64,000 nucleotides of DNA from positions 3,151-67,150 of the forward strand of contig CALGUK010000049.1 of NCBI GenBank assembly GCA_937920235.1, given 5' to 3'. Source of the stretch: an uncultured Clostridia bacterium (GTDB lineage: Bacteria > Bacillota > Clostridia > Oscillospirales > Acutalibacteraceae). Both the position numbers and the translations under genes were made by a program. The notes under the pieces are model-generated. The model was given only the letters and a program-made list of their open reading frames with translations. It did not search any database and was not told where the DNA came from. Below are positions 44,794 to 57,650 of this stretch, piece by piece (the stretch's first letter is position 1; every line of letters begins with the position of its first letter).

Positions 44794-45492
44794 ATGAAAA
44801 TACTTATCTGTGATGACGAAGTCAGATATATAAATGACCTGCGCAGGTATATTGAGGAATATATGAAAAACCACGGTATCGCCTGTGAGATTGATACAAC
44901 TACCGTGCCCAATGAAATAACAGATAATAATGTCGTTTATGATTTAGTGTTTCTTGATATAAGAATGCCGAATTTTGACGGAATTGACCTCGCCTATGAG
45001 CTGAAAGAACGAAACAGCAAGGTTGTTATATTTTTTGTTACTGCGTTCAATGAATATCAGGATGCAGCAATGGATTTACAGGTTTTCCGATTCTTTGAGA
45101 AGCCCTTTGATGCAAAACGATTATTTTCCAGTCTTGACAAAGCTATGGAATATATTGACGGCTCATATGTTGAAGTGTTTGTATATAACAATAAGGAACA
45201 CAAGAGAATTCTTGTCGATGATATAGTTTATATTGAAAACAGAAGCAGAAAAACGCATATCTACACACAGAAAAGTGAAATGATTGTCCGTGATTCTATT
45301 GACGAGTGGACAGAAAAATTGCCTACAACCTTCTTTTTCCGTGTTCATAAATCCTTTCTCGTTAACCTTCATTATGTTACAAAGTACAGTTATGAGGAGC
45401 TTTATCTTAACGAAAATATAAGAATCCCTGTTGCCACAAGAAAGCAGGCGGATTTTCATAAGGCCTGGTTCAGATATCTGAAAAGGAGATAG
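44794..45492 (+). CDS. LytTR-family response regulator
   Basis: Receiver domain (LICDDE..., phospho-acceptor context LVFLDIRMP) plus a LytTR DNA-binding domain (FFRVHKSFLVNLHYV). Confidence 0.93.
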   Translation: MKILICDDEVRYINDLRRYIEEYMKNHGIACEIDTTTVPNEITDNNVVYDLVFLDIRMPNFDGIDLAYELKERNSKVVIFFVTAFNEYQDAAMDLQVFRFFEKPFDAKRLFSSLDKAMEYIDGSYVEVFVYNNKEHKRILVDDIVYIENRSRKTHIYTQKSEMIVRDSIDEWTEKLPTTFFFRVHKSFLVNLHYVTKYSYEELYLNENIRIPVATRKQADFHKAWFRYLKRR

Positions 45493-45495
45493 AGA

Positions 45496-46776
45496 ATGTT
45501 TTTAGCTTTTTCATTTGCTTATTTAACAGAGTTTATATCAGCACATATTTTGTTTTCTTCAGCTGCAGAAAAGAAATATAAATCAGGAAAATGCTTTTTA
45601 ATAGGAGCAATTTTATTCGGAATAAGCATAATTATATGTTTTGTTGTCAGAAAGTTTACCTGGATTAATTTGATTATATACCTTATAATTGATATTTTAT
45701 ATGCTTATCTATGCTTTGATATGGGGATAAAAAAATCCATATTATACGGAACAATAGTTACACTTATAGGTGTAATATGGGAGGTGTTTGTTGAAATAAC
45801 GCTGTTATCAGTAACAGGTGCTGATTCCGAAGAATTACTGACAAGTGTGCTCGCTGTATCGATATGTTCTTATATAAGTAAAATGCTTTTGTTTATATCA
45901 GTATTGATTTTGTCAAGATTTGTCGCAAAAAATGATGCAGTAAAACTACCGGTGTCTGTCACTATCTATCCGATTGTGCTGATTATTGTCCTTTTAGCCT
46001 TTTGGGAGGTGTGTGAGAAATGTCAAGTGAACTCAACAGGGCAGCTTGCACTGGCAATTACCGCTGCAGGTCTTATTATTCCGACGGTGCTTTTCTTTTT
46101 GATTTACCAAAGAAATATTGAAAGAGAAAACGAATTGTTCTGTTTGAAAAAAGAAATGGATAAAATTGAAACGGAAAAGAGTTATTACGATATTCTCGAT
46201 AAGCAAAATCAGAACTTAAGAATATATGTCCATGATACTAAAAAACATCTTGCCGCAATAAAAAGTCTGAATACGGATCCGCAAATTGAGAAATATCTCA
46301 ATAAAATAACTGAAAATCTTGCTACATACAGCAAAGTCAGTCGCAGCGGTAATCACTCGTTTGATGTTATCATCAACAGATATGTTACGGAATGTGCAAT
46401 CAAAAAGCTTAACTTTACGTTTGATACAAGACTTAAAAATCTGGAATATATTGAGAATTATGACCTTGTGACCATACTCGGAAATCTGCTTGATAATGCC
46501 CTGGAATCTGCGGAGCAGTCACAAAACCGAGAAATTACTCTTTCAACGGATTGCAGAAACGGTTATGATGTTTTGATTATTACAAACAGTTGTGATATTG
46601 AACCAAAATCTCTGAATAATAAGCTGATTACAACAAAAGCTGACAAAAAGCTCCACGGTATCGGACTTAAAAGTGTTGCAAAAACATTATTAAAGTATAA
46701 CGGAGATTTCGACTGGGATTATGATGAGCAAAATAAAATTTTTACGGCAACCGTTATGATGTCGGAGGTAAAATAA
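45496..46776 (+). CDS. multi-pass sensor histidine kinase (HPK10/AgrC-like, GHKL ATPase)
   Basis: About 6 TM helices, a coiled coil, an H-box YVHDTKKHL, an N-box LGNLLDNALES and a G-box HGIGLKSV. Confidence 0.9.
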   Translation: MFLAFSFAYLTEFISAHILFSSAAEKKYKSGKCFLIGAILFGISIIICFVVRKFTWINLIIYLIIDILYAYLCFDMGIKKSILYGTIVTLIGVIWEVFVEITLLSVTGADSEELLTSVLAVSICSYISKMLLFISVLILSRFVAKNDAVKLPVSVTIYPIVLIIVLLAFWEVCEKCQVNSTGQLALAITAAGLIIPTVLFFLIYQRNIERENELFCLKKEMDKIETEKSYYDILDKQNQNLRIYVHDTKKHLAAIKSLNTDPQIEKYLNKITENLATYSKVSRSGNHSFDVIINRYVTECAIKKLNFTFDTRLKNLEYIENYDLVTILGNLLDNALESAEQSQNREITLSTDCRNGYDVLIITNSCDIEPKSLNNKLITTKADKKLHGIGLKSVAKTLLKYNGDFDWDYDEQNKIFTATVMMSEVK

Positions 46777-46777
46777 T

Positions 46778-47626
46778 ATGATTTATATTGTCGGTTTAGC
46801 AACTTCATATTTTGTTGAAGCTCTGTCGTCCTATATATTATTTTCACACGTCGGTGAAAAAAGGTTTAAATCCGTATATTGCTTTCTGATTGGCACAGGT
46901 CTGCATTCCCTCGGCATGTTTATCAATTTGTTGGGCAAGAATAAGATATGGATAAATTTAATTGCCTTTTTGATCATTACCGTTATATTCGGTATGCTTG
47001 CATTTAAAATCAATTTTAATATGGTTTGCTTATACTCTGTATTTATTGTTGCTATTTGTACATTCTGCGAAATGTATATGGAAATGCTCATTACCTCTGT
47101 TACGGATATGCAAATGCAAAGCTATCTGACGAGCGATATGGTAATGGTTGCGTTAGTTATATTCGGTAAAGGGTTTTATTTAATCAGCATACTGCTGATG
47201 TCAAGACTCATAAAACGGGAAAACCGTGTTAAATTACCCTTGGTTATGTTTCTTTACCCCATTTCTGCTTTTTTATCCTTTGCAGTCATCTGGTATGTGT
47301 GCAGATATTGCAATGTCAATTCTTACGGCAAGCTTGTTCTGTCAACAGTTATGATGCTGCTTTTTGCTGTGGTTGTATTTCTGCTTTTTTCTTACCAGAA
47401 AGGTATTGAGAGAGAAAGCAAACTGCTTGAACTCAAAACACAAATTGAAAAATCAGAAACGGAAAAAACATATTACAGCATCATTGAAAAGCAAAATGAT
47501 AATCTTATTTCTTATGCAGACGATACGCAAAAGCATCTTAAAGCAATAAAAATGCTTAATTCCGATCCGCAGATTGATGAATACATCAATAAGATGCTTG
47601 CAAGTCTGGATGAATACGGTAAATAA
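46778..47626 (+). CDS. truncated paralog of the upstream kinase (sensor TM domain + dimerisation helix; no ATPase domain, His replaced by Asp)
   Basis: Collinear similarity to kinase residues 1-~280. The aligned H-box reads YADDTQKHL. The ORF ends right before the position of the N-box and is followed by a terminator. ATG lies 1 nt after the kinase stop. Confidence 0.75.
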   Translation: MIYIVGLATSYFVEALSSYILFSHVGEKRFKSVYCFLIGTGLHSLGMFINLLGKNKIWINLIAFLIITVIFGMLAFKINFNMVCLYSVFIVAICTFCEMYMEMLITSVTDMQMQSYLTSDMVMVALVIFGKGFYLISILLMSRLIKRENRVKLPLVMFLYPISAFLSFAVIWYVCRYCNVNSYGKLVLSTVMMLLFAVVVFLLFSYQKGIERESKLLELKTQIEKSETEKTYYSIIEKQNDNLISYADDTQKHLKAIKMLNSDPQIDEYINKMLASLDEYGK

Positions 47627-48166: not shown

Positions 48167-51100
48167 ATGAAGAACAAAGTAAAAAGTCTGATAAGCATCT
48201 TACTTTCTTTGACTATTCTTATGGTTTCTGTTCCTGCTGTTTCACTTTTCTCCTTTGCGGAGGAAATCGAGGCAGGTGACGACCTGGAAGAATTTTCCGA
48301 GGATGTAACAAATCTTATCAGAGATGCCGGGTTAACAACTGATGAAAATGACTTGTATGTGTCCGCGGCTTCCGATACCGATGAAGCCGATACAAGTTAT
48401 GAGTATCAGACGGCAAGACTTATTGTTAAGTCAAAAAAGAAAATCGACAAGCTCAATGCCGTTGCCGTTGCAGACGGCTATGAGGATCTTCACATTTTGC
48501 AGTTTGCAACACCCGAGGATGCTCAGAAGGCTTGCGAATACTATCTTACATTGGATTATGTCGAATACGCTCAGCCCGACGGGATAGTTGAAGCTGCCGA
48601 TTATGAGGTAGTGAATGAAACACAGTCTATTGAAGATATCATTGCAGAGAAACCCGATCTTGAAAAGCCTGCAATTCAGGTAGGTATCAAAGCTCTTAAA
48701 GAATTTCTTGTGTCATCTGGCATTACGTTTACGAGAAAAATTGAGGTCGCCGTTGTTGATACGGGTGTGGAATCCACTCACAGTCTTCTGAAAGATCGTG
48801 TTGAACCTACAGGAAAGAATTTTTCTTCAAACGGAGCTGCAAATTCTTCTGAGGACAATAACGGTCACGGAACTCACGTTGCCGGTATTGTTGCGGTGAA
48901 CTCTCTTTCAAATGTAAAAATCAGACCGTATAAGGTTCTTGACGGTGCAGGAAGAGGAACGGATATTCAGATAGTCCTCGGCGTTGAGGCGGCAATATCC
49001 GACGGCGTTGAGGTTATAAATATGAGCCTCGGAAGAAGAGGAACAAACAGAGCCTTGCACGACTCCGTAAAAAAAGCAGTTGCAAAAAACATTGCCGTTG
49101 TTGTTTCGTCGGGTAATGATTTTGCAAATCTGGACAACATCAAATATTCACCTGCAAGCTTTCCGGAATGTATCACGGTTATCGCTCACGGTGCAAACTG
49201 CACGGGAAATACTTTTTCAAACTACGGTGCAGTATGCGATATAGCGGCACCCGGTGTGAATATTTACAGCTCTTATCTCAGAAATACATACAGAAATATG
49301 ACGGGTACATCAATGGCAGCACCTCTCGTAGCCGCCGCGGTAACTTACGTTATACTCAGCTATCCCGGTATTACTCCGGATGAAATCAGCGAAACCTTAA
49401 AAATGCATGCTATTCCCGAGGCTAATGCCTCATATTCAACCGCAATGTGTCTGTATATGGAGTTCATTACTCGCAGTGTGGATAAATTGTCTGCTCCCAT
49501 ATTCAGCATAGAGAGCAAAGAGTTTGACATTCCGTTCATGCTGACTCTTTCATCGTCCGATGAAAATGTAACGATATACTATACAAGGTCTGAATTCAGT
49601 GAAGGGTATTACGAGAAATATACAGAGCCTATTCCCATCAGAAACAGTACAACTGTCAAGGCTTATGCATATCGAAAGGGTGCAGTGATGAGTGAATTTG
49701 TTTCACATACATATTCCAAGCTGTTCCCCAACGAAGACTCCAAATACGCCATAGATGAAAACGGAACAATTATCGAATATGTAGGACAGGATACCGAACT
49801 TTTTGTTCCCGAGGTAATTCAGGGAATACAGGTAAAGGCTATCGGTGAAGAAGCATTCCGTCAGAATAAAACAGTTGAGTTTATCGTATTACCCGAATCT
49901 GTTAAGATTATCGGTGAAAAGGCCTTTGCCGAGTCCGAAAAGCTCAGACAGGTTCGTGCAACGGGTGTGGAGACGATTGACACATCGGCATTTATGCTTT
50001 GTGAATCACTTGAAAGCATTGAAGGAAATAACATTAAAAACATAGGCTCTTATGCTTTTTACGGCTGTCCAGTACTCAAATATATTGATTTCTCCAAAGC
50101 GGAAAAAATCGAAAGCTGTGCTTTTGAAAGTGCGTTGAGCATTACAAGCGTTGTTTCAGATACATTGAGTGATGTCAGCGGTACGGCATTCAGAGAGTCG
50201 GGAATAAGAATCGTGGATGTTCCGAATATGAAGAAAATTGACGTGTCAACATTTTACGGATGTGAGCTGCTTGAAAAGGTAAATGCTCCTCTTGTTACAG
50301 CAATAAACAACGACGCGTTCAACGGATGCTCGGCTCTTATTGAAATCAACGCGGAAAATCTCGAAAGCGTTGGTCGCTACAGCTTCCTGAATTGCAGTTC
50401 ACTTGAAGAAATCAATTTCCCGAAGCTTAAAGATTTCGGCGGTTTAGGACTTGAAACAAGCGATTGGGGATGCTTCAAAAACTGTGAAAGTCTTAAAAAG
50501 GTCAATTTACCGTCAGCAACCGTTCTCACGGGCTCGACATTTGACGGCTGTTCATCTCTCGAAGAAATTTCCTTGCCTAAGGCTACGGTAATACCGATAA
50601 GTCTTTTCAGAAACTGTACCGCCCTCAAAAAAGCGGATCTGCCGTCGGCTACCGAAATTTATTCACGTGCATTCGACGGTTGCACCAGTTTAAAGGAAAT
50701 CGAATTGCCGTCTGTTAAAACTGTCAGAACAAGTGCATTTTATGGCAATAATATTGAAAGACTTATTCTTCCCGTTGTTGAAACTGTTGCCGATTTGCCA
50801 TCTGGGGCTATGGTTGCAATCGGCTCCAAGGCTCGCACTATAGACAATCCGAATGCTTTCAGCAGCGGCTCGGATATAACAATTTACGGCACTGTTAATA
50901 CAAAGGCTTACGAGTGGGCAGAAACATATAAAATTCCCTTTAAAGAGATAAATCAGAATAATGCGATTCATATGAATCTCCCCCATGAGTTTGATCAGGA
51001 CAGAGAAACAGCACTTGAAGTCGGTGTTATGGGATTTAACCGTACTTATCAGTGGTACGGAAACAGTCGTGCAGACAACACGACGGGTACTGAGATTGAG

Positions 51101-51922
51101 GGCGCTGTTGATAAAACCTTTAATCCCGTAAAATATGACGAGTACCCGTACTATTATTGTGTTGTGACAAGCAAGGATAATTCATATCCTGCCGTTGAAA
51201 TACGAACCGGTGTAGCTAAGAATATACATACACATATAAAGGTGGAAATTCCACGTGTTGAACCGACTTGTGTAACGACCGGTCTCACTGCCGGAACAGA
51301 GTGTTCGCAATGCGGCAGAATTATCACACCGCAGGAAGAAATACAGACAATTCCCCATGAGTACAACGGTGTTGTAACAGCTCCGACCTGTACGGAAGAG
51401 GGTTATACCACATATACATGTAATTGCGGCAGAAACTATATCGACGATTACGTTTCCGCAAAGGGACATACGGTAAGAGAATACGGGAAAGTTCTGGAAG
51501 CCCCGAATTGTACGGAGGAGGGCAGCAAGGACAGTATTGATTATTGTGTTGCCTGTAACTGTGTCCTTGAACGAAAGGTTATAACAATGCCGGCTCTCGG
51601 ACATACTCCCGGTAAAGCAGTTGAAGAGAACCTTGTGACACCCACCTGTGAGGAAACGGGCTCAAAGGATATCGTCATCTGTTGTTCACACTGCAAGGAG
51701 GAAATCAGTCGTGAAACAGTAACTCTGGAAATGCTTGGCCACAGCGATGATGACGGTGACGGCTATTGCGACGGATGCGATAAGCTCCTCGATGTAACGG
51801 TTGAATGTGACCATAGCTGTCACAAGGGCGGTATTTCAGGATTTTTCTGGAAAATCACGCTTTTCTTCAGCAAGCTTTTCGGCACTAACAGAGTTTGCGA
51901 ATGCGGAGTGGCGCATTATTGA
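48167..51922 (+). CDS. secreted S8 subtilisin-like protease fused to BspA-type leucine-rich repeats and a Cys/His-rich C-terminal module
   Basis: Signal peptide and an I9-like propeptide. Catalytic residues D (VAVVDTGV), H (HGTHVAG) and S (GTSMAAP). One chitobiase/Fn3-associated-like domain (VTIYYTRSE...TVKAYAYRKG) and about 18 LRR_5-type repeats. Four CxxC-type mini-repeats and the terminal CHKGGISGFFWKITLFFSKLFG motif. Confidence 0.9.
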   Translation: MKNKVKSLISILLSLTILMVSVPAVSLFSFAEEIEAGDDLEEFSEDVTNLIRDAGLTTDENDLYVSAASDTDEADTSYEYQTARLIVKSKKKIDKLNAVAVADGYEDLHILQFATPEDAQKACEYYLTLDYVEYAQPDGIVEAADYEVVNETQSIEDIIAEKPDLEKPAIQVGIKALKEFLVSSGITFTRKIEVAVVDTGVESTHSLLKDRVEPTGKNFSSNGAANSSEDNNGHGTHVAGIVAVNSLSNVKIRPYKVLDGAGRGTDIQIVLGVEAAISDGVEVINMSLGRRGTNRALHDSVKKAVAKNIAVVVSSGNDFANLDNIKYSPASFPECITVIAHGANCTGNTFSNYGAVCDIAAPGVNIYSSYLRNTYRNMTGTSMAAPLVAAAVTYVILSYPGITPDEISETLKMHAIPEANASYSTAMCLYMEFITRSVDKLSAPIFSIESKEFDIPFMLTLSSSDENVTIYYTRSEFSEGYYEKYTEPIPIRNSTTVKAYAYRKGAVMSEFVSHTYSKLFPNEDSKYAIDENGTIIEYVGQDTELFVPEVIQGIQVKAIGEEAFRQNKTVEFIVLPESVKIIGEKAFAESEKLRQVRATGVETIDTSAFMLCESLESIEGNNIKNIGSYAFYGCPVLKYIDFSKAEKIESCAFESALSITSVVSDTLSDVSGTAFRESGIRIVDVPNMKKIDVSTFYGCELLEKVNAPLVTAINNDAFNGCSALIEINAENLESVGRYSFLNCSSLEEINFPKLKDFGGLGLETSDWGCFKNCESLKKVNLPSATVLTGSTFDGCSSLEEISLPKATVIPISLFRNCTALKKADLPSATEIYSRAFDGCTSLKEIELPSVKTVRTSAFYGNNIERLILPVVETVADLPSGAMVAIGSKARTIDNPNAFSSGSDITIYGTVNTKAYEWAETYKIPFKEINQNNAIHMNLPHEFDQDRETALEVGVMGFNRTYQWYGNSRADNTTGTEIEGAVDKTFNPVKYDEYPYYYCVVTSKDNSYPAVEIRTGVAKNIHTHIKVEIPRVEPTCVTTGLTAGTECSQCGRIITPQEEIQTIPHEYNGVVTAPTCTEEGYTTYTCNCGRNYIDDYVSAKGHTVREYGKVLEAPNCTEEGSKDSIDYCVACNCVLERKVITMPALGHTPGKAVEENLVTPTCEETGSKDIVICCSHCKEEISRETVTLEMLGHSDDDGDGYCDGCDKLLDVTVECDHSCHKGGISGFFWKITLFFSKLFGTNRVCECGVAHY
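51602..51922 (+). repeat. 321-nt 3'-terminal module, paralogous copy 1
   Basis: Gap-free alignment with 57291-57611. 78 of 106 residues are identical by my hand count, and 31 of the last 36. Confidence 0.85.
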
Positions 51923-51971
51923 TACTGCCGAAATAAAAAGTGCGTTATTATTAGAATTGGAGATGAGATTT

Positions 51972-54900
51972 ATGCGGAAAATTCATAAATTTTTATCAGT
52001 TATTCTGACAATTGTGATGACATTATCCGTTACTCCTGTTACTGCAAGTGCTGCAGGAGGTGCTTGCGGAGCGAATTTGAAGTGGAATTATAATACTTCT
52101 ACATATATTCTTACAATCACAGGTACGGGCGACATGGCTAATTACAGCTATACAAATCGTCCTTGGGAAACCTATGAGGATAAAATTAAAGAGGTTGTTA
52201 TTGCAGACGGGGTAACGTCAATAGGTGCATATGCATTTTACAGCTTCGGCAAGGTGACGAGCATTACAATACCTGACAGTGTTACAAAAATCGGTGCTAC
52301 GGCATTTAATGCCTGTAAAGCTCTTGTTAATATAGACCTTCCCGATGGTATTACGGAAATTCCGAACCGTGCATTCACAAATTGCACTGCTCTTGAGAAT
52401 ATTACAATCCCTTCAAATGTTAAAACGATCGGAGCTTCGGCTTTTGAAGGCTGTTCCGCTCTGACCTCGGTTACGATTCCCGACGGTGTAACAACAATTG
52501 AGGCAAAAGCGTTTGCATCCTGTAAGGGACTTACGGGAATTATGATTCCGGCGAGTGTTACATCGATAGATTGTTCGGCTTTTGAAAACTGTGTCGGCTT
52601 TTCCGGTGTGGTTATAGATGAAAAGAACCCGAACTATTCAAGCGACGCTTTCGGTGTGCTTTTCAACAAGGATAAATCAGAGCTTATTGCATATCCTACA
52701 GGAAATACATCAACAAGCTACACGGTTCCCGACAGCGTCAGAACAATAGGAGCAAGTGCTTTTAAGGGACAGATATATCTTACCGATGTTACGGTTGGGG
52801 AACATGTGATAACCATTGAGGATTACGCTTTTTACGGCTGTTCGGCGCTTAAAAATGTGTCGTTTGAGGGCGAGAAAAATGCCCTTGAGGATATCGGTCA
52901 ATATGCGTTTTCCGAATGTGACAGCCTTTCTGCCGTAACACTTCCGAAAAATGTCAGAACGATCCGTACAAATGCGTTTGCAAACAGCGACAACCTTGCA
53001 CAGATTTCACTTCCTGCAGGCTTGAAGGTGCTTGAAAGCGATGCATTTATCGGAACGGCTTTATACAGCGATGAAGAAAACTGGAAAAATGATATACTGT
53101 ATATTGATGGTTGCGTAATAACAGCGAAAACCGAGCTGTCTGATACCGTTCAGTTCGAGGACGGCACAAAACTGATTGCGGATAATGCATTTAACGGCTG
53201 TGTGGGAATTACAAGTGTAATTCTTCCTGAGGGAATAACATCAATCGGAAACAACGCTTTTTCGGGTTGCTCAGGACTGACGGATATAACAATGGCCGTA
53301 ACAATAAACTCCATCGGTGACAGCGCCTTTTCGGGATGTTCATCATTAAAGGAGGTTTACTATTCGGGAACGGCTAAACAGTGGTTTGAGATTTCTATAG
53401 GAGTTCAGAATCAGCCGTTGACATCTGCAGCCTTTCTCACGGGTCCCGGCGGAGAGGCAATTGTTGTTACCGGCGGATATATGGGAGATATCAAATGGTT
53501 CTTTGATGAAGAAAACAATGTCCTGACGCTTTCCGGCAAGGGAAAAACAGACGAGTTTATTTTCGGCGAGCGTCCCTGGGAGATATATGCAGATTTGATT
53601 CAGACAGTTGTTGTCGGAAGCGGCATAACCAATGTCGGCAAAAATGCTTTCAGAAATCTTCCCAAGCTTTCAAATGTAATTCTTCCATATGGTATGATGT
53701 CAATTGAAGAGAATGCTTTTGCAAATTGCAATTTGTTAAACGATATTCTTCTCCCAAAATCCCTGAGATATATCGGAAACAGCTCTTTTTCAAACTGCTC
53801 GTCTCTCGAGGCCATAAACCTTGAACTTATCACCGAGGTAGGTATGATGGCCTTCTCGGGATGCACCTCGCTGAAAGAAGCAAACTTCGGTCCGATTACA
53901 ACACTCGGAAATTCGGCATTTTACGGATGTACAAGCCTGACCGGTGTAACTTTCGGTAAATACCTGGGCTCAATCAAGTATTCAATGTTTGAAGGCTGTG
54001 ACAAGCTTGAGAAAATTACGGTTGACAGTGAAAACGAAACCTATATGAGTGACGAACACGGTGTGTTGTTCAGTAAGGACGGAACAGAGCTTGTTCTGTA
54101 TCCTATGGGCAATGCTGAAAAGACATATTCATTACCTGACAGCGTAATCAGAATCAAGAAGGATTCATTTGACGGAACGAAAAATCTTCTCACATTAAAT
54201 TTTAATAAGAATTTACAAAAAATCGAAGAGAGTGCCTTTGATGCGTGCAGTATTACCGAATTCTGTTATCCCGGTACAATTGAACAATGGGAAGAGAAGG
54301 TAACTGTCGGTACAAATAACAGCAATCTCAGCGGCGAGACTCTTACACTCATGCCATCTGACCTGGAGGCACTTACGGGTAAATGCGGAGATGATGTTTT
54401 CTGGACACTTAATGCATACACGGGTGATATGGTTATCTCGGGTACGGGACCGATGTATGATTATGCTTCAGACGAAGCGCGTCCTTGGGAAAGATACTTA
54501 ACTGCTATAACAAATATCGTGATCGGTGATGGTGTAACATCTGTCGGTACGGATGCATTTTCATACGGTAACAGAATTGAGAGCGTTACAATCGGTAATG
54601 ATGTGAGTGTAATCGGTGATTATGCTTTCTATGAGTGTTCGGCTCTTAAAAAGGTGACATTCGGAGAGAGCGTAACATCAATCGGAAGACATGCATTTTA
54701 TTCTTGTGCAGAGCTTAAAAGTCTCAATCTTCCGGACAGCTTAACAACTATCGGAATTTCCGCTTTCTTTCTCTGTGAGGGTGTTACGGAAATTGCAATA
54801 GGTAAGGGACTTGTCTCTTTCGCGGCAAATACGTTTGCACGGTGCACAAGCCTAGAAAAGATAACGGTTGACAGTGAAAACCCGAATTTTTCAAGCGACA

Positions 54901-57611
54901 GCTTCGGTGTATTGTTTAACAGGGAAAAAACAACTCTTATTAAATATCCTGAGGCAAATTCCTTAACTGTTTATACAATTCCCGATTCCGTAACGACAAT
55001 TGATGCAAACAGCTTCTTATGTGCGGCAAAGCTTACGGAGATTATAATTCCTGACGGAGTTACAACCATCGAAGAGAGTGCTTTCAAGGAGTGCTTCAAC
55101 CTTAAAACCGTTGAAATACCAGCATCTGTAACAACAATTAAGAACCAGGTGTTCAATAATTGCGTTATGCTTGAAAAAATCGTAATTCCGGATGGTATTA
55201 CAACAATCGGTACACAGATGTTTTACTATTGCGGTCAGCTCAAGGAAATTATTATTCCCGAAAGTGTAACATCTGTAGGCAAACAGGCATTTACATCCTG
55301 CTCATCTCTTAAGGATGTTTATTTCAAGGGAACACAGCAGCAATGGTCGGCTATATCCGTAGCAAATAACAATCAACCTCTCATTGATGCAATAAAGCAT
55401 TTTAATTACGGAGACGGTGATTTTTCGTATGTTGTTATTTCCGAAGAGGAAAAAACCGCTAAAATCATAGGCTATAATGTTTCAGGACCGTCGTTGAACG
55501 TTATAATACCGAAAACCATTGATGGCTATACAGTCATAGAGTTTGACGAAACCATATTTAAAAATCTCGATTCGCTTACAAGCGTCAAAATTCCTGACAC
55601 CGTGGTGAAAATAGGAGACGGTGCATTTTATAATTGCGGTAATCTTGCCGATATCAGTATTCCCGAAAGCATCGTATCAATAGGTGAAAATGCCTTTGCT
55701 TTCTGCGACAAGCTCACAACGGTGATGATGGGTAAAGGTGTAGAAACGATCGCGACAGGAGCATTCAACGGATGTAATGCGTTGGCAAATGTTTATTATA
55801 CGGGAACTCAGGAGCAATGGAATTCCATATCCGTTGGTCAGAACAATCAGCCGCTTTTAAATGCCACAGTACATTTTGAATACGGCGAGCTCGACTCTGT
55901 TTCGGGTACCTGGGGTGATAATATCACCTGGACACTTGATTTTTATTCCGGTGTATTAACTTTTTACGGCGACGGAAAAATGAAGCTGAATTCGGGCTCA
56001 TACAACTTCCCGTGGCACAGCTATAAGGGATCGGTAAAAGAGGTTGTTATATCTGACGGAATAACATATATCGCTCCGGGCACATTCTACTATTTTACAA
56101 ATCTTGAGACCGCTACCATTGCGGGAAGTGTCAAAACAATTGAAGGACATACATTTGAATACTGCAACCGGCTTGAAAAGGTAACGCTTTCCGACGGTCT
56201 GGAAAAAATCGGTTTATATGCATTCAGAAACTGTTCAAAACTTGAAAAAATAGTTATTCCGAACAGCGTAACCGTAATCGGAGATTCAGCTTTTGAGAAT
56301 TGCAAGGAGCTTACAAGTGTTAAACTCAGCGAAAACATTACGGAAATAGGCTCATGTGTGTTTTATGAATGTAATAAGCTTAAAGAGATAAACATTCCGG
56401 AGGGTGTAACAATAATCGGTGAAGCAGCATTTTATAGTTGTGCATCTCTGACGGAACTGACAATTCCCGAAAGTGTTACGTCAATTCAAAAGGATGCGTT
56501 TGCATATTGCAAGGGAATTGAAACCGTGACGATGGGCGCAGGAGTAAAGGAAATTCTCAGCAGTGCATTTTATTACTGCATCAGCATAAAGGATGTTTAT
56601 TATTCAGGCTCACAAGCTCAATGGAAAATGATCAGTATAGGTACAAGAAATGAAGACCTCACAGATGCGACTCTTCATTGTCTCGGAGCTGAACATCCGC
56701 ACGAATTTGCAGTTGTTGTAACAGAACCCACTTGTCTTAAACAGGGATATACAACATACATCTGCGAATGCGGATATGAGTATGTTGACGATTATGTTGA
56801 GGCATTGGGACACGATTATATTGAGGTTGTAACAAAGCCTACCTGCACAAAAGAAGGATACACAACATACACTTGTTCAAGATGTGCTGACAGTTATGTT
56901 TCCACCAAACCCATTAACCCGACGGGACATACCTTTGTGTCTGAAATCGTAACAGCTCCGACTCATCTTGCTGAGGGTGTTGAAAAGCTTGTGTGCAGTG
57001 AATGCGGTTATTCCAATACAAAACCCATTGAAAAATTACCCGAGCACACTTATGAAGCAACGGTTACGGTACCGACCTGCACCGAGCAGGGCTATACGAC
57101 ATTTACCTGTGCCTGCGGAGATACCTATGTCGGTGACTATGTTCCTATGAACGGACACACGGTTGAAAAATTCGAGAGCATAATTTCGGAACCCGGCTGT
57201 ACGGACGACGGAATCAAAGAGATTGTGTCCGTATGTACCGTTTGTAACATGGGATTGGGTACGGAAATTATCGTAACTCAGGCACACGGTCATACTGCCG
57301 CGGATGCGGTTGAAGAAAACTGTGTTGCACCTACCTGCGAATGTGCAGGCAGCAAGGATGTTGTAGTATATTGCAGTCTTTGTGACAGTGAGATAAGCCG
57401 TGAGACAGTTACTATTGAAGCAACGGGCCACGCAGATAACGACGGTGACGGATACTGCGATATGTGTAATGAACTTCTTGACCCGACGGTTGAATGTAAC
57501 CACGGCTGTCATAAGGGCGGCATATCGGGATTTTTCTGGAAAATCACACTTTTCTTCAGTAAACTTTTCGGAACAAACAAAGTATGCGATTGCGGTGCTC
57601 TGCATTATTGA
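51972..57611 (+). CDS. giant secreted BspA-type leucine-rich repeat protein with the same Cys/His-rich C-terminal module
   Basis: ATG 51972 lies 9 nt after a GGAG RBS. The ORF opens at 51801, but that part overlaps the upstream gene. Signal peptide VTPVTASA-AG, five LRR super-repeats, six Cys-rich mini-repeats and the terminal motif. Confidence 0.88.
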   Translation: MRKIHKFLSVILTIVMTLSVTPVTASAAGGACGANLKWNYNTSTYILTITGTGDMANYSYTNRPWETYEDKIKEVVIADGVTSIGAYAFYSFGKVTSITIPDSVTKIGATAFNACKALVNIDLPDGITEIPNRAFTNCTALENITIPSNVKTIGASAFEGCSALTSVTIPDGVTTIEAKAFASCKGLTGIMIPASVTSIDCSAFENCVGFSGVVIDEKNPNYSSDAFGVLFNKDKSELIAYPTGNTSTSYTVPDSVRTIGASAFKGQIYLTDVTVGEHVITIEDYAFYGCSALKNVSFEGEKNALEDIGQYAFSECDSLSAVTLPKNVRTIRTNAFANSDNLAQISLPAGLKVLESDAFIGTALYSDEENWKNDILYIDGCVITAKTELSDTVQFEDGTKLIADNAFNGCVGITSVILPEGITSIGNNAFSGCSGLTDITMAVTINSIGDSAFSGCSSLKEVYYSGTAKQWFEISIGVQNQPLTSAAFLTGPGGEAIVVTGGYMGDIKWFFDEENNVLTLSGKGKTDEFIFGERPWEIYADLIQTVVVGSGITNVGKNAFRNLPKLSNVILPYGMMSIEENAFANCNLLNDILLPKSLRYIGNSSFSNCSSLEAINLELITEVGMMAFSGCTSLKEANFGPITTLGNSAFYGCTSLTGVTFGKYLGSIKYSMFEGCDKLEKITVDSENETYMSDEHGVLFSKDGTELVLYPMGNAEKTYSLPDSVIRIKKDSFDGTKNLLTLNFNKNLQKIEESAFDACSITEFCYPGTIEQWEEKVTVGTNNSNLSGETLTLMPSDLEALTGKCGDDVFWTLNAYTGDMVISGTGPMYDYASDEARPWERYLTAITNIVIGDGVTSVGTDAFSYGNRIESVTIGNDVSVIGDYAFYECSALKKVTFGESVTSIGRHAFYSCAELKSLNLPDSLTTIGISAFFLCEGVTEIAIGKGLVSFAANTFARCTSLEKITVDSENPNFSSDSFGVLFNREKTTLIKYPEANSLTVYTIPDSVTTIDANSFLCAAKLTEIIIPDGVTTIEESAFKECFNLKTVEIPASVTTIKNQVFNNCVMLEKIVIPDGITTIGTQMFYYCGQLKEIIIPESVTSVGKQAFTSCSSLKDVYFKGTQQQWSAISVANNNQPLIDAIKHFNYGDGDFSYVVISEEEKTAKIIGYNVSGPSLNVIIPKTIDGYTVIEFDETIFKNLDSLTSVKIPDTVVKIGDGAFYNCGNLADISIPESIVSIGENAFAFCDKLTTVMMGKGVETIATGAFNGCNALANVYYTGTQEQWNSISVGQNNQPLLNATVHFEYGELDSVSGTWGDNITWTLDFYSGVLTFYGDGKMKLNSGSYNFPWHSYKGSVKEVVISDGITYIAPGTFYYFTNLETATIAGSVKTIEGHTFEYCNRLEKVTLSDGLEKIGLYAFRNCSKLEKIVIPNSVTVIGDSAFENCKELTSVKLSENITEIGSCVFYECNKLKEINIPEGVTIIGEAAFYSCASLTELTIPESVTSIQKDAFAYCKGIETVTMGAGVKEILSSAFYYCISIKDVYYSGSQAQWKMISIGTRNEDLTDATLHCLGAEHPHEFAVVVTEPTCLKQGYTTYICECGYEYVDDYVEALGHDYIEVVTKPTCTKEGYTTYTCSRCADSYVSTKPINPTGHTFVSEIVTAPTHLAEGVEKLVCSECGYSNTKPIEKLPEHTYEATVTVPTCTEQGYTTFTCACGDTYVGDYVPMNGHTVEKFESIISEPGCTDDGIKEIVSVCTVCNMGLGTEIIVTQAHGHTAADAVEENCVAPTCECAGSKDVVVYCSLCDSEISRETVTIEATGHADNDGDGYCDMCNELLDPTVECNHGCHKGGISGFFWKITLFFSKLFGTNKVCDCGALHY
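57291..57611 (+). repeat. 321-nt 3'-terminal module, paralogous copy 2
   Basis: Gap-free alignment with 51602-51922. Confidence 0.85.
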
Positions 57612-57650
57612 TAACACTAATACGGAAAATATTTTACCTTAAGATGAAAA

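Follow-up and report, generated by a model that had tools for sequence, protein, structure and literature searches.

The last 18 residues of Escherichia coli PBP5 (DacA) anchor this enzyme to the inner membrane, on its outer face (PMC2909392), and in Limousia, a member of the same family as the bacterium considered here, the anchoring scaffoldin cSca5 combines a cohesin with an LPxTG end (PMC12997984). Here, we report a computational analysis of a C-terminal module, referred to below as the tail, that is shared by the products of two adjacent plus-strand open reading frames (ORFs), ORF A and ORF B, in a stretch of 64,000 nucleotides from an uncultured Clostridia bacterium of the Acutalibacteraceae (contig CALGUK010000049.1; this whole stretch is the window). 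Both genes encode giant secreted proteins with Sec-type signal peptides. A first-pass annotation of the sequence had put the tail forward as a candidate anchoring or sorting module.

We find that the tail is a genuine conserved module that had previously escaped curation, and we consider it rather likely that it serves as a surface-retention module for Sec-exported proteins. It is retention or anchoring that best accounts for the comparative data, because the tail is strictly C-terminal, occurs in many paralogs with diverse Sec-exported cargo, interchanges with dockerin, SLH and transmembrane (TM) ends, and is found on proteins with a single cohesin. In all probability, then, proteins that end in the tail are kept on the cell by a device that is new. 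The mechanism is a more tentative matter, and we weigh below a membrane-interface helix against several rival explanations.

A fixed core at the end of a large protein family

Both proteins close with a 38-residue core of the pattern C-x-[H/C]-x-C-H-K-x-G-(16-residue helix)-x5-C-x-C-G-x-x-H-[Y/W], and a translation of the window in all six frames has no further copy (Table 1). The alignment of homologs shows no variation at C1, C5, H6, G9, C31, C33, G34, and H37 and a choice between His (82 sequences) and Cys (60) at position 3; the spacing of the core is fixed in 142 of 150 homologs. The 106-codon tails of ORF A and ORF B are only 70% identical as DNA, and all 8 differences among the 16 helix codons are synonymous, so that purifying selection at the protein level, and neither chance nor a recent gene conversion, keeps the two tails alike.

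An exhaustive HMMER search of 1.84 billion protein cluster representatives (50% identity) with a 62-position profile of the tail yielded 2085 matches at E ≤ 1e-3 and 760 at E ≤ 1e-10. It was this search that brought the family to light; a word-indexed protein search, which gave back only proteins of roughly query length, returned one fragment with the 62-residue tail and 29 short fragments with a 79-sequence profile. The match ends on the last residue of the protein in 147 of the 150 best cases, the exceptions being one truncation and two 9-residue extensions. A few tails run past the terminal HY: they continue as EKPIFNFKR (P0117) or EKPIFNFNR (P0147), and short extensions, EKPIFGKG and GKG, follow the usual terminal HY in L014:6255-10277 and L016:2566-6171.

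A Sec-type N-terminus is present in 95 of the 106 tail matches of at least 400 residues. The cargo is diverse: of 64 of these 106 proteins checked against Pfam, 48 carry LRR_5 (BspA-type repeats), and cohesin, C-type lectin, papain-type protease, metallophosphatase, and Big_3 domains also appear in this sample.

Oscillospirales such as Candidatus (Ca.) Fimenecus are abundant, uncultured gut bacteria. A genome scan of one genome per species, with an 8-sequence alignment as the query, gave 216 confirmed tail sites. The best 80 of these all come from gut metagenome-assembled genomes (MAGs), labeled Ca. Fimenecus, Acutalibacteraceae, Oscillospiraceae, Faecalibacterium, Clostridiaceae, or simply ‘Clostridia bacterium’, and goat, deer, and yak are the hosts where the isolate names among these 80 state one. 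Paralogs are numerous: a single Ca. Fimenecus MAG can contain at least 8-9 tail loci, and tail genes are also found in tandem, as they are in the window.

The strict C-terminal position, the many paralogs per genome, and the diverse cargo are also hallmarks of a processed sorting signal, one that a dedicated enzyme of the sortase, exosortase, rhombosortase, or some other type would cleave or transfer, with covalent attachment as the outcome. We regard this as quite improbable for the tail, which lacks the combination of signature motif, TM helix, and basic tail, and in which conservation runs to the last residue instead of centering on a cleavage motif. An LPXTG-like pentapeptide is missing from ORF A and ORF B (zero matches to the regular expression [LSPN]P.[TAS]G), no NCBIfam sorting-domain model matches the tail at E ≤ 10, and no processing enzyme recurs in the neighborhoods of 79 tail loci. 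When all ORFs of these 79 loci were clustered, no gene family other than the tail proteins themselves was present in more than 8 of them, and on this sample we rejected the idea of a dedicated partner or processing gene beside the tail genes.

Searches of databases and literature

The first-pass annotation had not recognized the tail as a named domain, and this judgment stands in Pfam-A, NCBIfam 20.0, PDB sequences, and Foldseek comparisons with PDB structures. Pfam-A contains no significant match to the tail at E ≤ 10. The dockerin model PF00404 does not match it at this threshold, and only one DxDxDG-type loop is present; SLH (PF00395) and choline-binding models find no match in ORF A or ORF B. 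In NCBIfam 20.0, including its sorting models (PEP-CTERM, GlyGly-CTERM), there is no family for the 231-residue or the 62-residue tail at E ≤ 10, and the 38-residue core draws only a sub-threshold match to pheromone VP1 (18 bits against a cut-off of 85). Single-sequence and profile searches of PDB sequences gave nothing significant for the tail, matches to S100B and to designed repeats being rejected as noise, and the best Foldseek E values against PDB were 0.3 for a 106-residue model and 7.6 for a 62-residue model.

The absence of LPXTG, SLH, dockerin, choline-binding, and classical TM elements from ORF A and ORF B, also noted in the first pass, was confirmed by regular expression, Pfam, and Kyte-Doolittle analysis. 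The best 19-residue Kyte-Doolittle window in the tail reaches 0.95, compared with 2.0-2.3 for the signal peptides; the central segment of the tail, which carries two Lys and is followed by CxCGxxHY, has neither the hydrophobicity nor the length of a TM helix. In the full-text literature, the core motif strings retrieved only unrelated degenerate primers, a keyword search turned up no described Cys-rich stalk or anchor of this type, and the publications found on Fimenecus were taxonomic or association studies with nothing relevant to the tail.

A predicted amphipathic helix framed by Cys/His clusters

AlphaFold2 (AF2) models of the tail have a mean predicted local distance difference test (pLDDT) score of 88.4 for 106 residues and 86.6 for 62 residues. 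In both, the segment ISGFFWKITLFFSKLF is predicted as a helix (residues 78-93 and 33-49, respectively; pLDDT 86-90). Its conserved hydrophobic residues are spaced at i, i+3, i+4, i+7, i+10, i+11, i+14, and i+15, with Lys at i+6 and i+13 on the other face. The family mean of the hydrophobic moment (µH) is 0.58 at a hydrophobicity of 0.47, and the helix of the window has 0.43 at 0.54, the lower µH being due to a Leu where most family members have Asn; the background for proteins of the window is a mean of 0.22 with the 99th percentile at 0.56. The tail helix therefore combines the high µH and moderate hydrophobicity that characterize the terminal helix of amphipathic in-plane anchors, and the AF2 prediction and the family µH together uphold the earlier description of this segment as an amphipathic helix.

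The Cys and His residues on both sides of the helix were likewise taken in the first pass for metal-type ligands. The exchange of His and Cys at core position 3, which has a parallel in the first ligand of the mini-repeats described below, argues for this assignment and points to metal binding. Conserved Cys/His ligands that sit on turns and can replace one another are typical of zinc-ribbon-type domains, and such ligands are found in both the mini-repeat and the core.

Three independent variants lack both Cys/His clusters and retain a C-terminal amphipathic helix, with µH between 0.54 and 0.81. In P0005, a stalk and an Asp loop are followed by the bare helix. The 155-residue protein L076:3681-4148 consists of a signal peptide, about 2-3 mini-repeats, an Asp loop, and the helix FDWIVAFFKALVQWFKDIFA (µH 0.59), and in L023:167-3871 a bare amphipathic helix with µH 0.81 comes directly after the stalk. 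Because these variants keep the helix alone, the Cys/His clamp seems to be an accessory and not the essence of the module, and the helix is the most likely effector of any mechanism.

The heptad-like spacing of the conserved hydrophobic residues (i, i+3, i+4, i+7, and so on) would also suit oligomerization or clustering, in which the Phe-rich a/d/e face bundles into a Phe zipper, or the Cys/His residues bridge metal between chains, or both, so that multivalent adhesins would form without being anchored. With 7 ligand-type residues, the core exceeds the requirement of a single Zn site, and the SasG/Aap G5-E stalk proteins are known for Zn-dependent self-association; they appear among our Foldseek matches, as non-significant ones only. 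Nevertheless, 16 residues give a helix little length with which to form a stable bundle, and self-association would leave both the interchange with dockerin, SLH, and TM anchors and the existence of cohesin-tail proteins unexplained. We therefore hold oligomerization to be improbable.

A mini-repeat stalk and an optional Asp loop

Upstream of the core, ORF A and ORF B contain 4 and 6 mini-repeats, counts that alignment of the units bears out; the translations of 51227-51922 and 56694-57440 are exactly the sequences quoted in the first-pass annotation. The pattern of the ORF A array is P-x-[C/H]-x3-G-x(4-9)-C-x(1-2)-C-x(8-20)-H, and the Pro, the Gly, two Cys, and the closing His are invariant in all 10 aligned units. 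The first ligand is Cys in 9 of the 10 and His in the remaining one, the third unit of ORF B (56928-57044); this His-first subtype (TAPTHxxxG...) also occurs in P0005 and P0184. AF2 folds the last mini-repeat of ORF A into a three-stranded sheet with pLDDT 92-97. Free Cys residues are frequent in the leucine-rich repeat (LRR) part as well, and given this, the set of 3 Cys and 1 His, and the replacement of the first Cys by His, a metal site seems a better interpretation than disulfides. Sequence, profile, and Foldseek searches of Pfam and PDB gave no significant match to the mini-repeat.

A search that used the array as query found the same mini-repeats before dockerin ends (P0009, P0011, P0020, P0023, P0025, P0038), SLH ends (P0030, P0039), a TM segment with a basic tail (P0004, P0014), and the present tail (P0002, P0012). 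Since dockerin, SLH, and TM anchors can also come after it, the mini-repeat behaves as a generic, independent, and widespread stalk. Within the tail family, 94 of the 105 full-length proteins have at least one mini-repeat, usually 1-7, and nearly all units in these 105 proteins lie no more than 450 residues from the C-terminus.

After both arrays comes an Asp loop, (S/A)D(D/N)DGDGYCD(G/M)C(D/N), an 8-residue linker, and then the 38-residue core. The resemblance of this loop to Ca-binding DxDxDG loops, pointed out previously, holds: DDDGDGYCD and DNDGDGYCD both fit the consensus D-x-[DN]-x-D-G-x-C-D, and positions D7, C14, and D15 of the loop are at least 90% conserved in the family alignment. 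The loop may accordingly be of the Ca-binding type. The match of Pfam TSP3_bac to it is not significant (E=4.2; 7.8 bits against a cut-off of 25). Across the tail family, the Asp loop is optional; it is absent from P0204, P0205, P0209, P0215, and a 195-residue cohesin-tail protein of locus L044.

The first-pass annotation had joined repeats and tail into one module, a view that has to be given up in favor of three separable parts: the mini-repeat stalk, the optional Asp loop, and the core, which is self-sufficient, as it directly follows the cohesin in the 195-residue protein. The idea that the core is itself a mini-repeat with an inserted helix was rejected, because hhalign of the two profiles aligns only the ‘GH’ junction, with a probability of 5%.

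Many mini-repeat arrays close with an H-x(5-9)-C-x2-C cap regardless of what comes next, which lends some plausibility to the notion that the tail, too, merely ends and stabilizes the stalk, the proteins being released or retained by other means. We nevertheless rate a purely structural cap as very improbable. The core is also found with no stalk before it, a cap would call for far less conservation and a far less strict terminal position, and no other retention element was found in ORF A or ORF B by Pfam and motif scans.

Cohesin-tail proteins and the target of the tail

A signal peptide, one cohesin, and the tail make up P0071, P0103, P0060, P0101, and P0156, as well as ORFs in the loci L030 and L044. 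Anchoring scaffoldins are built in this way, and the Limousia protein with its LPxTG end is the equivalent. In L044, from an uncultured Clostridia MAG, two such genes stand in tandem (L044:5596-7412 and L044:8608-11706; 195 and 372 residues). Beside them, the other strand carries phage genes for capsid and portal proteins, which may belong to an adjacent prophage, and no dockerin genes are located nearby. In another locus, L077:457-4379, the gene directly after a tail gene encodes a mini-repeat protein whose end is a duplicated, dockerin-like DADGDGKVSAADARL segment, so that a single genome has both the tail and the cohesin-dockerin system.

What the tail would bind is a separate issue, and the membrane interface as its target is the weaker part of our interpretation compared with retention itself. 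We propose, tentatively, that in Acutalibacteraceae/Oscillospiraceae-type Clostridia the tail anchors proteins non-covalently by a helix in the membrane interface. Following Sec export, for which the signal peptides are seen, the mini-repeats would fold into flat, three-stranded, probably Zn-bound units and so form a stalk, on which the DxDxDG loop would be an optional Ca-type cap. The two terminal clusters, C-x-[H/C]-x-C-H and C-x-C-G-x-x-H, would bind metal, probably Zn, and thereby frame, stiffen, and position the predicted 16-residue cationic, Phe-rich amphipathic helix. I10, F13, F14, I17, F20, F21, L24, and F25 would then lie in the interface, in the outer leaflet of the cytoplasmic membrane, and K7, K16, K23, and K29 would contact anionic head groups, giving a non-covalent tether similar to that of PBP5.

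Several observations weigh against this proposal. F13, F21, and F25 are almost invariant as Phe and not exchangeable for other hydrophobic residues, a pattern more suggestive of specific packing, whether within the fold or onto a partner, than of unspecific contact with lipid. An anchor at the membrane level would bury the cohesin of the stalk-less 195-residue protein under the wall, and 34 of the 105 full-length tail proteins have no mini-repeat or only one. An in-plane helix would be a weak tether for a protein of 140-200 kDa, and the resemblance to PBP5 covers only a short segment and has probably arisen by convergence.

The same features lead to what we consider a serious rival, although on balance an unlikely one, namely that the tail is a docking module: a Zn-stabilized mini-domain that binds a specific receptor (a surface or wall protein, or a wall polymer) in a dockerin- or SLH-like manner, with the Phe face of the helix as the interface. 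The very high conservation of the 38 residues, with invariant Phe, G9, and N28 and the fixed C-terminal H-[YW], is typical of a folded recognition domain, and AF2 is confident over the whole 62-residue unit. Docking would also accord with the interchange of the tail with dockerin and SLH after the same stalk, with the build of adaptor scaffoldins, which likewise combine a cohesin with a docking module at the C-terminus, and with the stalk-less cohesin-tail protein, which fits the wall level better than the membrane level. Yet there is no candidate receptor among the neighbors, no gene family recurring beside the tail genes in the 79 loci; the clamp-less variants keep the amphipathic helix alone; and the cationic amphipathic character of the helix matches that of lipid-binding helices. 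We retain the membrane-interface helix, at somewhat less than even odds, as the working model of how the tail would hold proteins on the cell.

The two genes and their genomic setting

The features of the two genes and of their surroundings are collected in Table 1. The computed masses of the two products agree with the range of 140-200 kDa estimated in the first pass. ORF B was originally listed from TTG 51801, and ATG 51963 and ATG 51972 are the candidate starts downstream of it. A GGAG directly abuts ATG 51963 and lies 9 nt from ATG 51972 (MRKIHKFL...); given this spacing and the same start in the homolog P0078, ATG 51972 is probably the true start, not TTG 51801.

Table 1. Coordinates of ORF A, ORF B, and neighboring features in the window
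Feature	Position	Strand	Remarks
ORF A	48167-51922	+	1251 aa, 136.8 kDa; order: Sec signal peptide, S8 subtilase, CHB_HEX_C/Fn3_assoc, BspA-type LRR_5, 4 mini-repeats, Asp loop, tail core
ORF A mini-repeat array	51227..51742	+	4 units, 37-46 aa
ORF A Asp loop SDDDGDGYCDGCD	51743..51781	+	DxDxDG type
ORF A 38-aa tail core CDHSCHKGGISGFFWKITLFFSKLFGTNRVCECGVAHY	51806..51919	+	stop codon 51920-51922
ORF A amphipathic helix ISGFFWKITLFFSKLF	51833..51880	+	core positions 10-25; predicted by AF2
ORF B	51963..57611 (start 51972 likelier)	+	1882 aa, 203.7 kDa; order: Sec signal peptide, 11 matched LRR_5 stretches, 6 mini-repeats, Asp loop, tail core
ORF B mini-repeat array	56694..57431	+	6 units; third has His for first Cys
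ORF B Asp loop ADNDGDGYCDMCN	57432..57470	+	DxDxDG type
ORF B 38-aa tail core CNHGCHKGGISGFFWKITLFFSKLFGTNKVCDCGALHY	57495..57608	+	helix 57522-57569; stop codon 57609-57611
LytTR response regulator	44794-45492	+	upstream of ORF A
GHKL histidine kinase	45496-46776	+	upstream of ORF A
Polytopic membrane ORF	46778-47626	+	282 aa, no kinase domain
Antisense ORF	51182-51604	-	140 aa
Antisense ORF	57036-57617	-	193 aa

The locus closest to the window, L011:1-11523 (Ca. Fimenecus sp. JAZQUC010000220), is syntenic with it at about 70% nucleotide identity and contains three consecutive tail-bearing genes (at least 733, 1252, and 1765 aa), so that the gene pair of the window belongs to a conserved tandem array. 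Upstream of ORF A are genes for a LytTR response regulator and a GHKL histidine kinase and, directly before the surface-protein genes, a polytopic membrane ORF. Together (44794-47626), these three look like an Agr-like sensing unit, which may regulate ORF A and ORF B. Housekeeping genes follow downstream of ORF B. Two antisense ORFs overlap the repeat and tail regions and are most likely artefacts of coding-strand composition.

Significance and comparison with known systems

The tail module is short (38 aa) and sharply bounded, is represented in more than 2000 clusters at 50% identity, and is absent from Pfam, NCBIfam, and PDB; the mini-repeat is a second uncurated unit that folds confidently and merits a family model of its own. 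If the tail is a retention device, the few anchoring mechanisms of Gram-positive bacteria gain a new member, the surface proteome of these organisms can be predicted by a simple sequence rule, the attachment of cohesin complexes is explained for species with scaffoldins that have no sortase signal or SLH domain, and a compact tag for surface display becomes available. In its broadest form, this idea makes the tail a new class of Gram-positive anchor, a metal-clamped amphipathic-helix domain that uncultured gut Acutalibacteraceae/Oscillospiraceae would use as their chief means of display, with metal (Zn/Ca) switching as a possibility; we see this as a real prospect, only a little short of even. 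Such a class would be unrelated to LPXTG, SLH, CWB2, LysM, GW, choline-binding, lipobox, and TM anchors, and its cargo would range from BspA-type adhesins and proteases even to cohesin scaffoldins.

The stalk and the loop each have partial counterparts. Like zinc-ribbon-type mini-domains and the G5-E stalk repeats of SasG/Aap, the mini-repeat is predicted to be a three-stranded sheet with ligands on two turns, and, as in SasG/Aap, the units form tandem arrays between a functional domain and an anchor, with a probable Zn dependence. It differs from zinc ribbons in its ligand set, C/H + CxC or CxxC + H in place of two CxxC knuckles, and from the zinc-ribbon-type mini-domains in its extracellular setting. 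The Asp loop agrees with DxDxDG and TSP3 loops in its consensus and in the acidic residue at +9, whereas, unlike TSP3 repeats, it is present in a single copy and missing in some members of the tail family.

Among the C-terminal modules, dockerins of types I and II and the SLH domains of Clostridia take the same position after the same mini-repeat stalk as the tail does, and they are small C-terminal retention or docking modules as well, with a metal dependence (Ca) in the case of dockerin. The tail differs from them in having no Pfam match and in its predicted structure, one helix with Cys/His knuckles instead of a duplicated F-hand or SLH helices. With LPXTG/sortase signals, the tail shares the C-terminal location, the Sec-dependent cargo, the many paralogs per genome, and the use on anchoring scaffoldins; it differs in the lack of an LPXTG-like motif, a TM helix, and a basic tail, and there is no evidence of cleavage.

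In the character of its helix, the tail resembles the PBP5 anchor. Both lie at the extreme C-terminus of Sec-exported proteins, and both helices are cationic, aromatic-rich, and amphipathic, with µH of 0.58 for the tail family and 0.49 for PBP5 (at a hydrophobicity of 0.35). The PBP5 tail GNFFGKIIDYIKLMF, taken from strain MG1655, and the family consensus FFWKIINFFNKLF are identical in 6 of 13 residues, the local PBP5 segment that resembles the consensus being FFGKIIDYIKLMF. The two are without detectable homology, and PBP5 has no Cys/His clusters; it is a 40-kDa periplasmic enzyme of a diderm, whereas the proteins of the window are adhesins of 140-200 kDa from a monoderm, and the tail is far more conserved and serves a far wider set of cargo. 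Judged against all these systems, the tail would be a new solution to a known problem, that of C-terminal surface anchoring.

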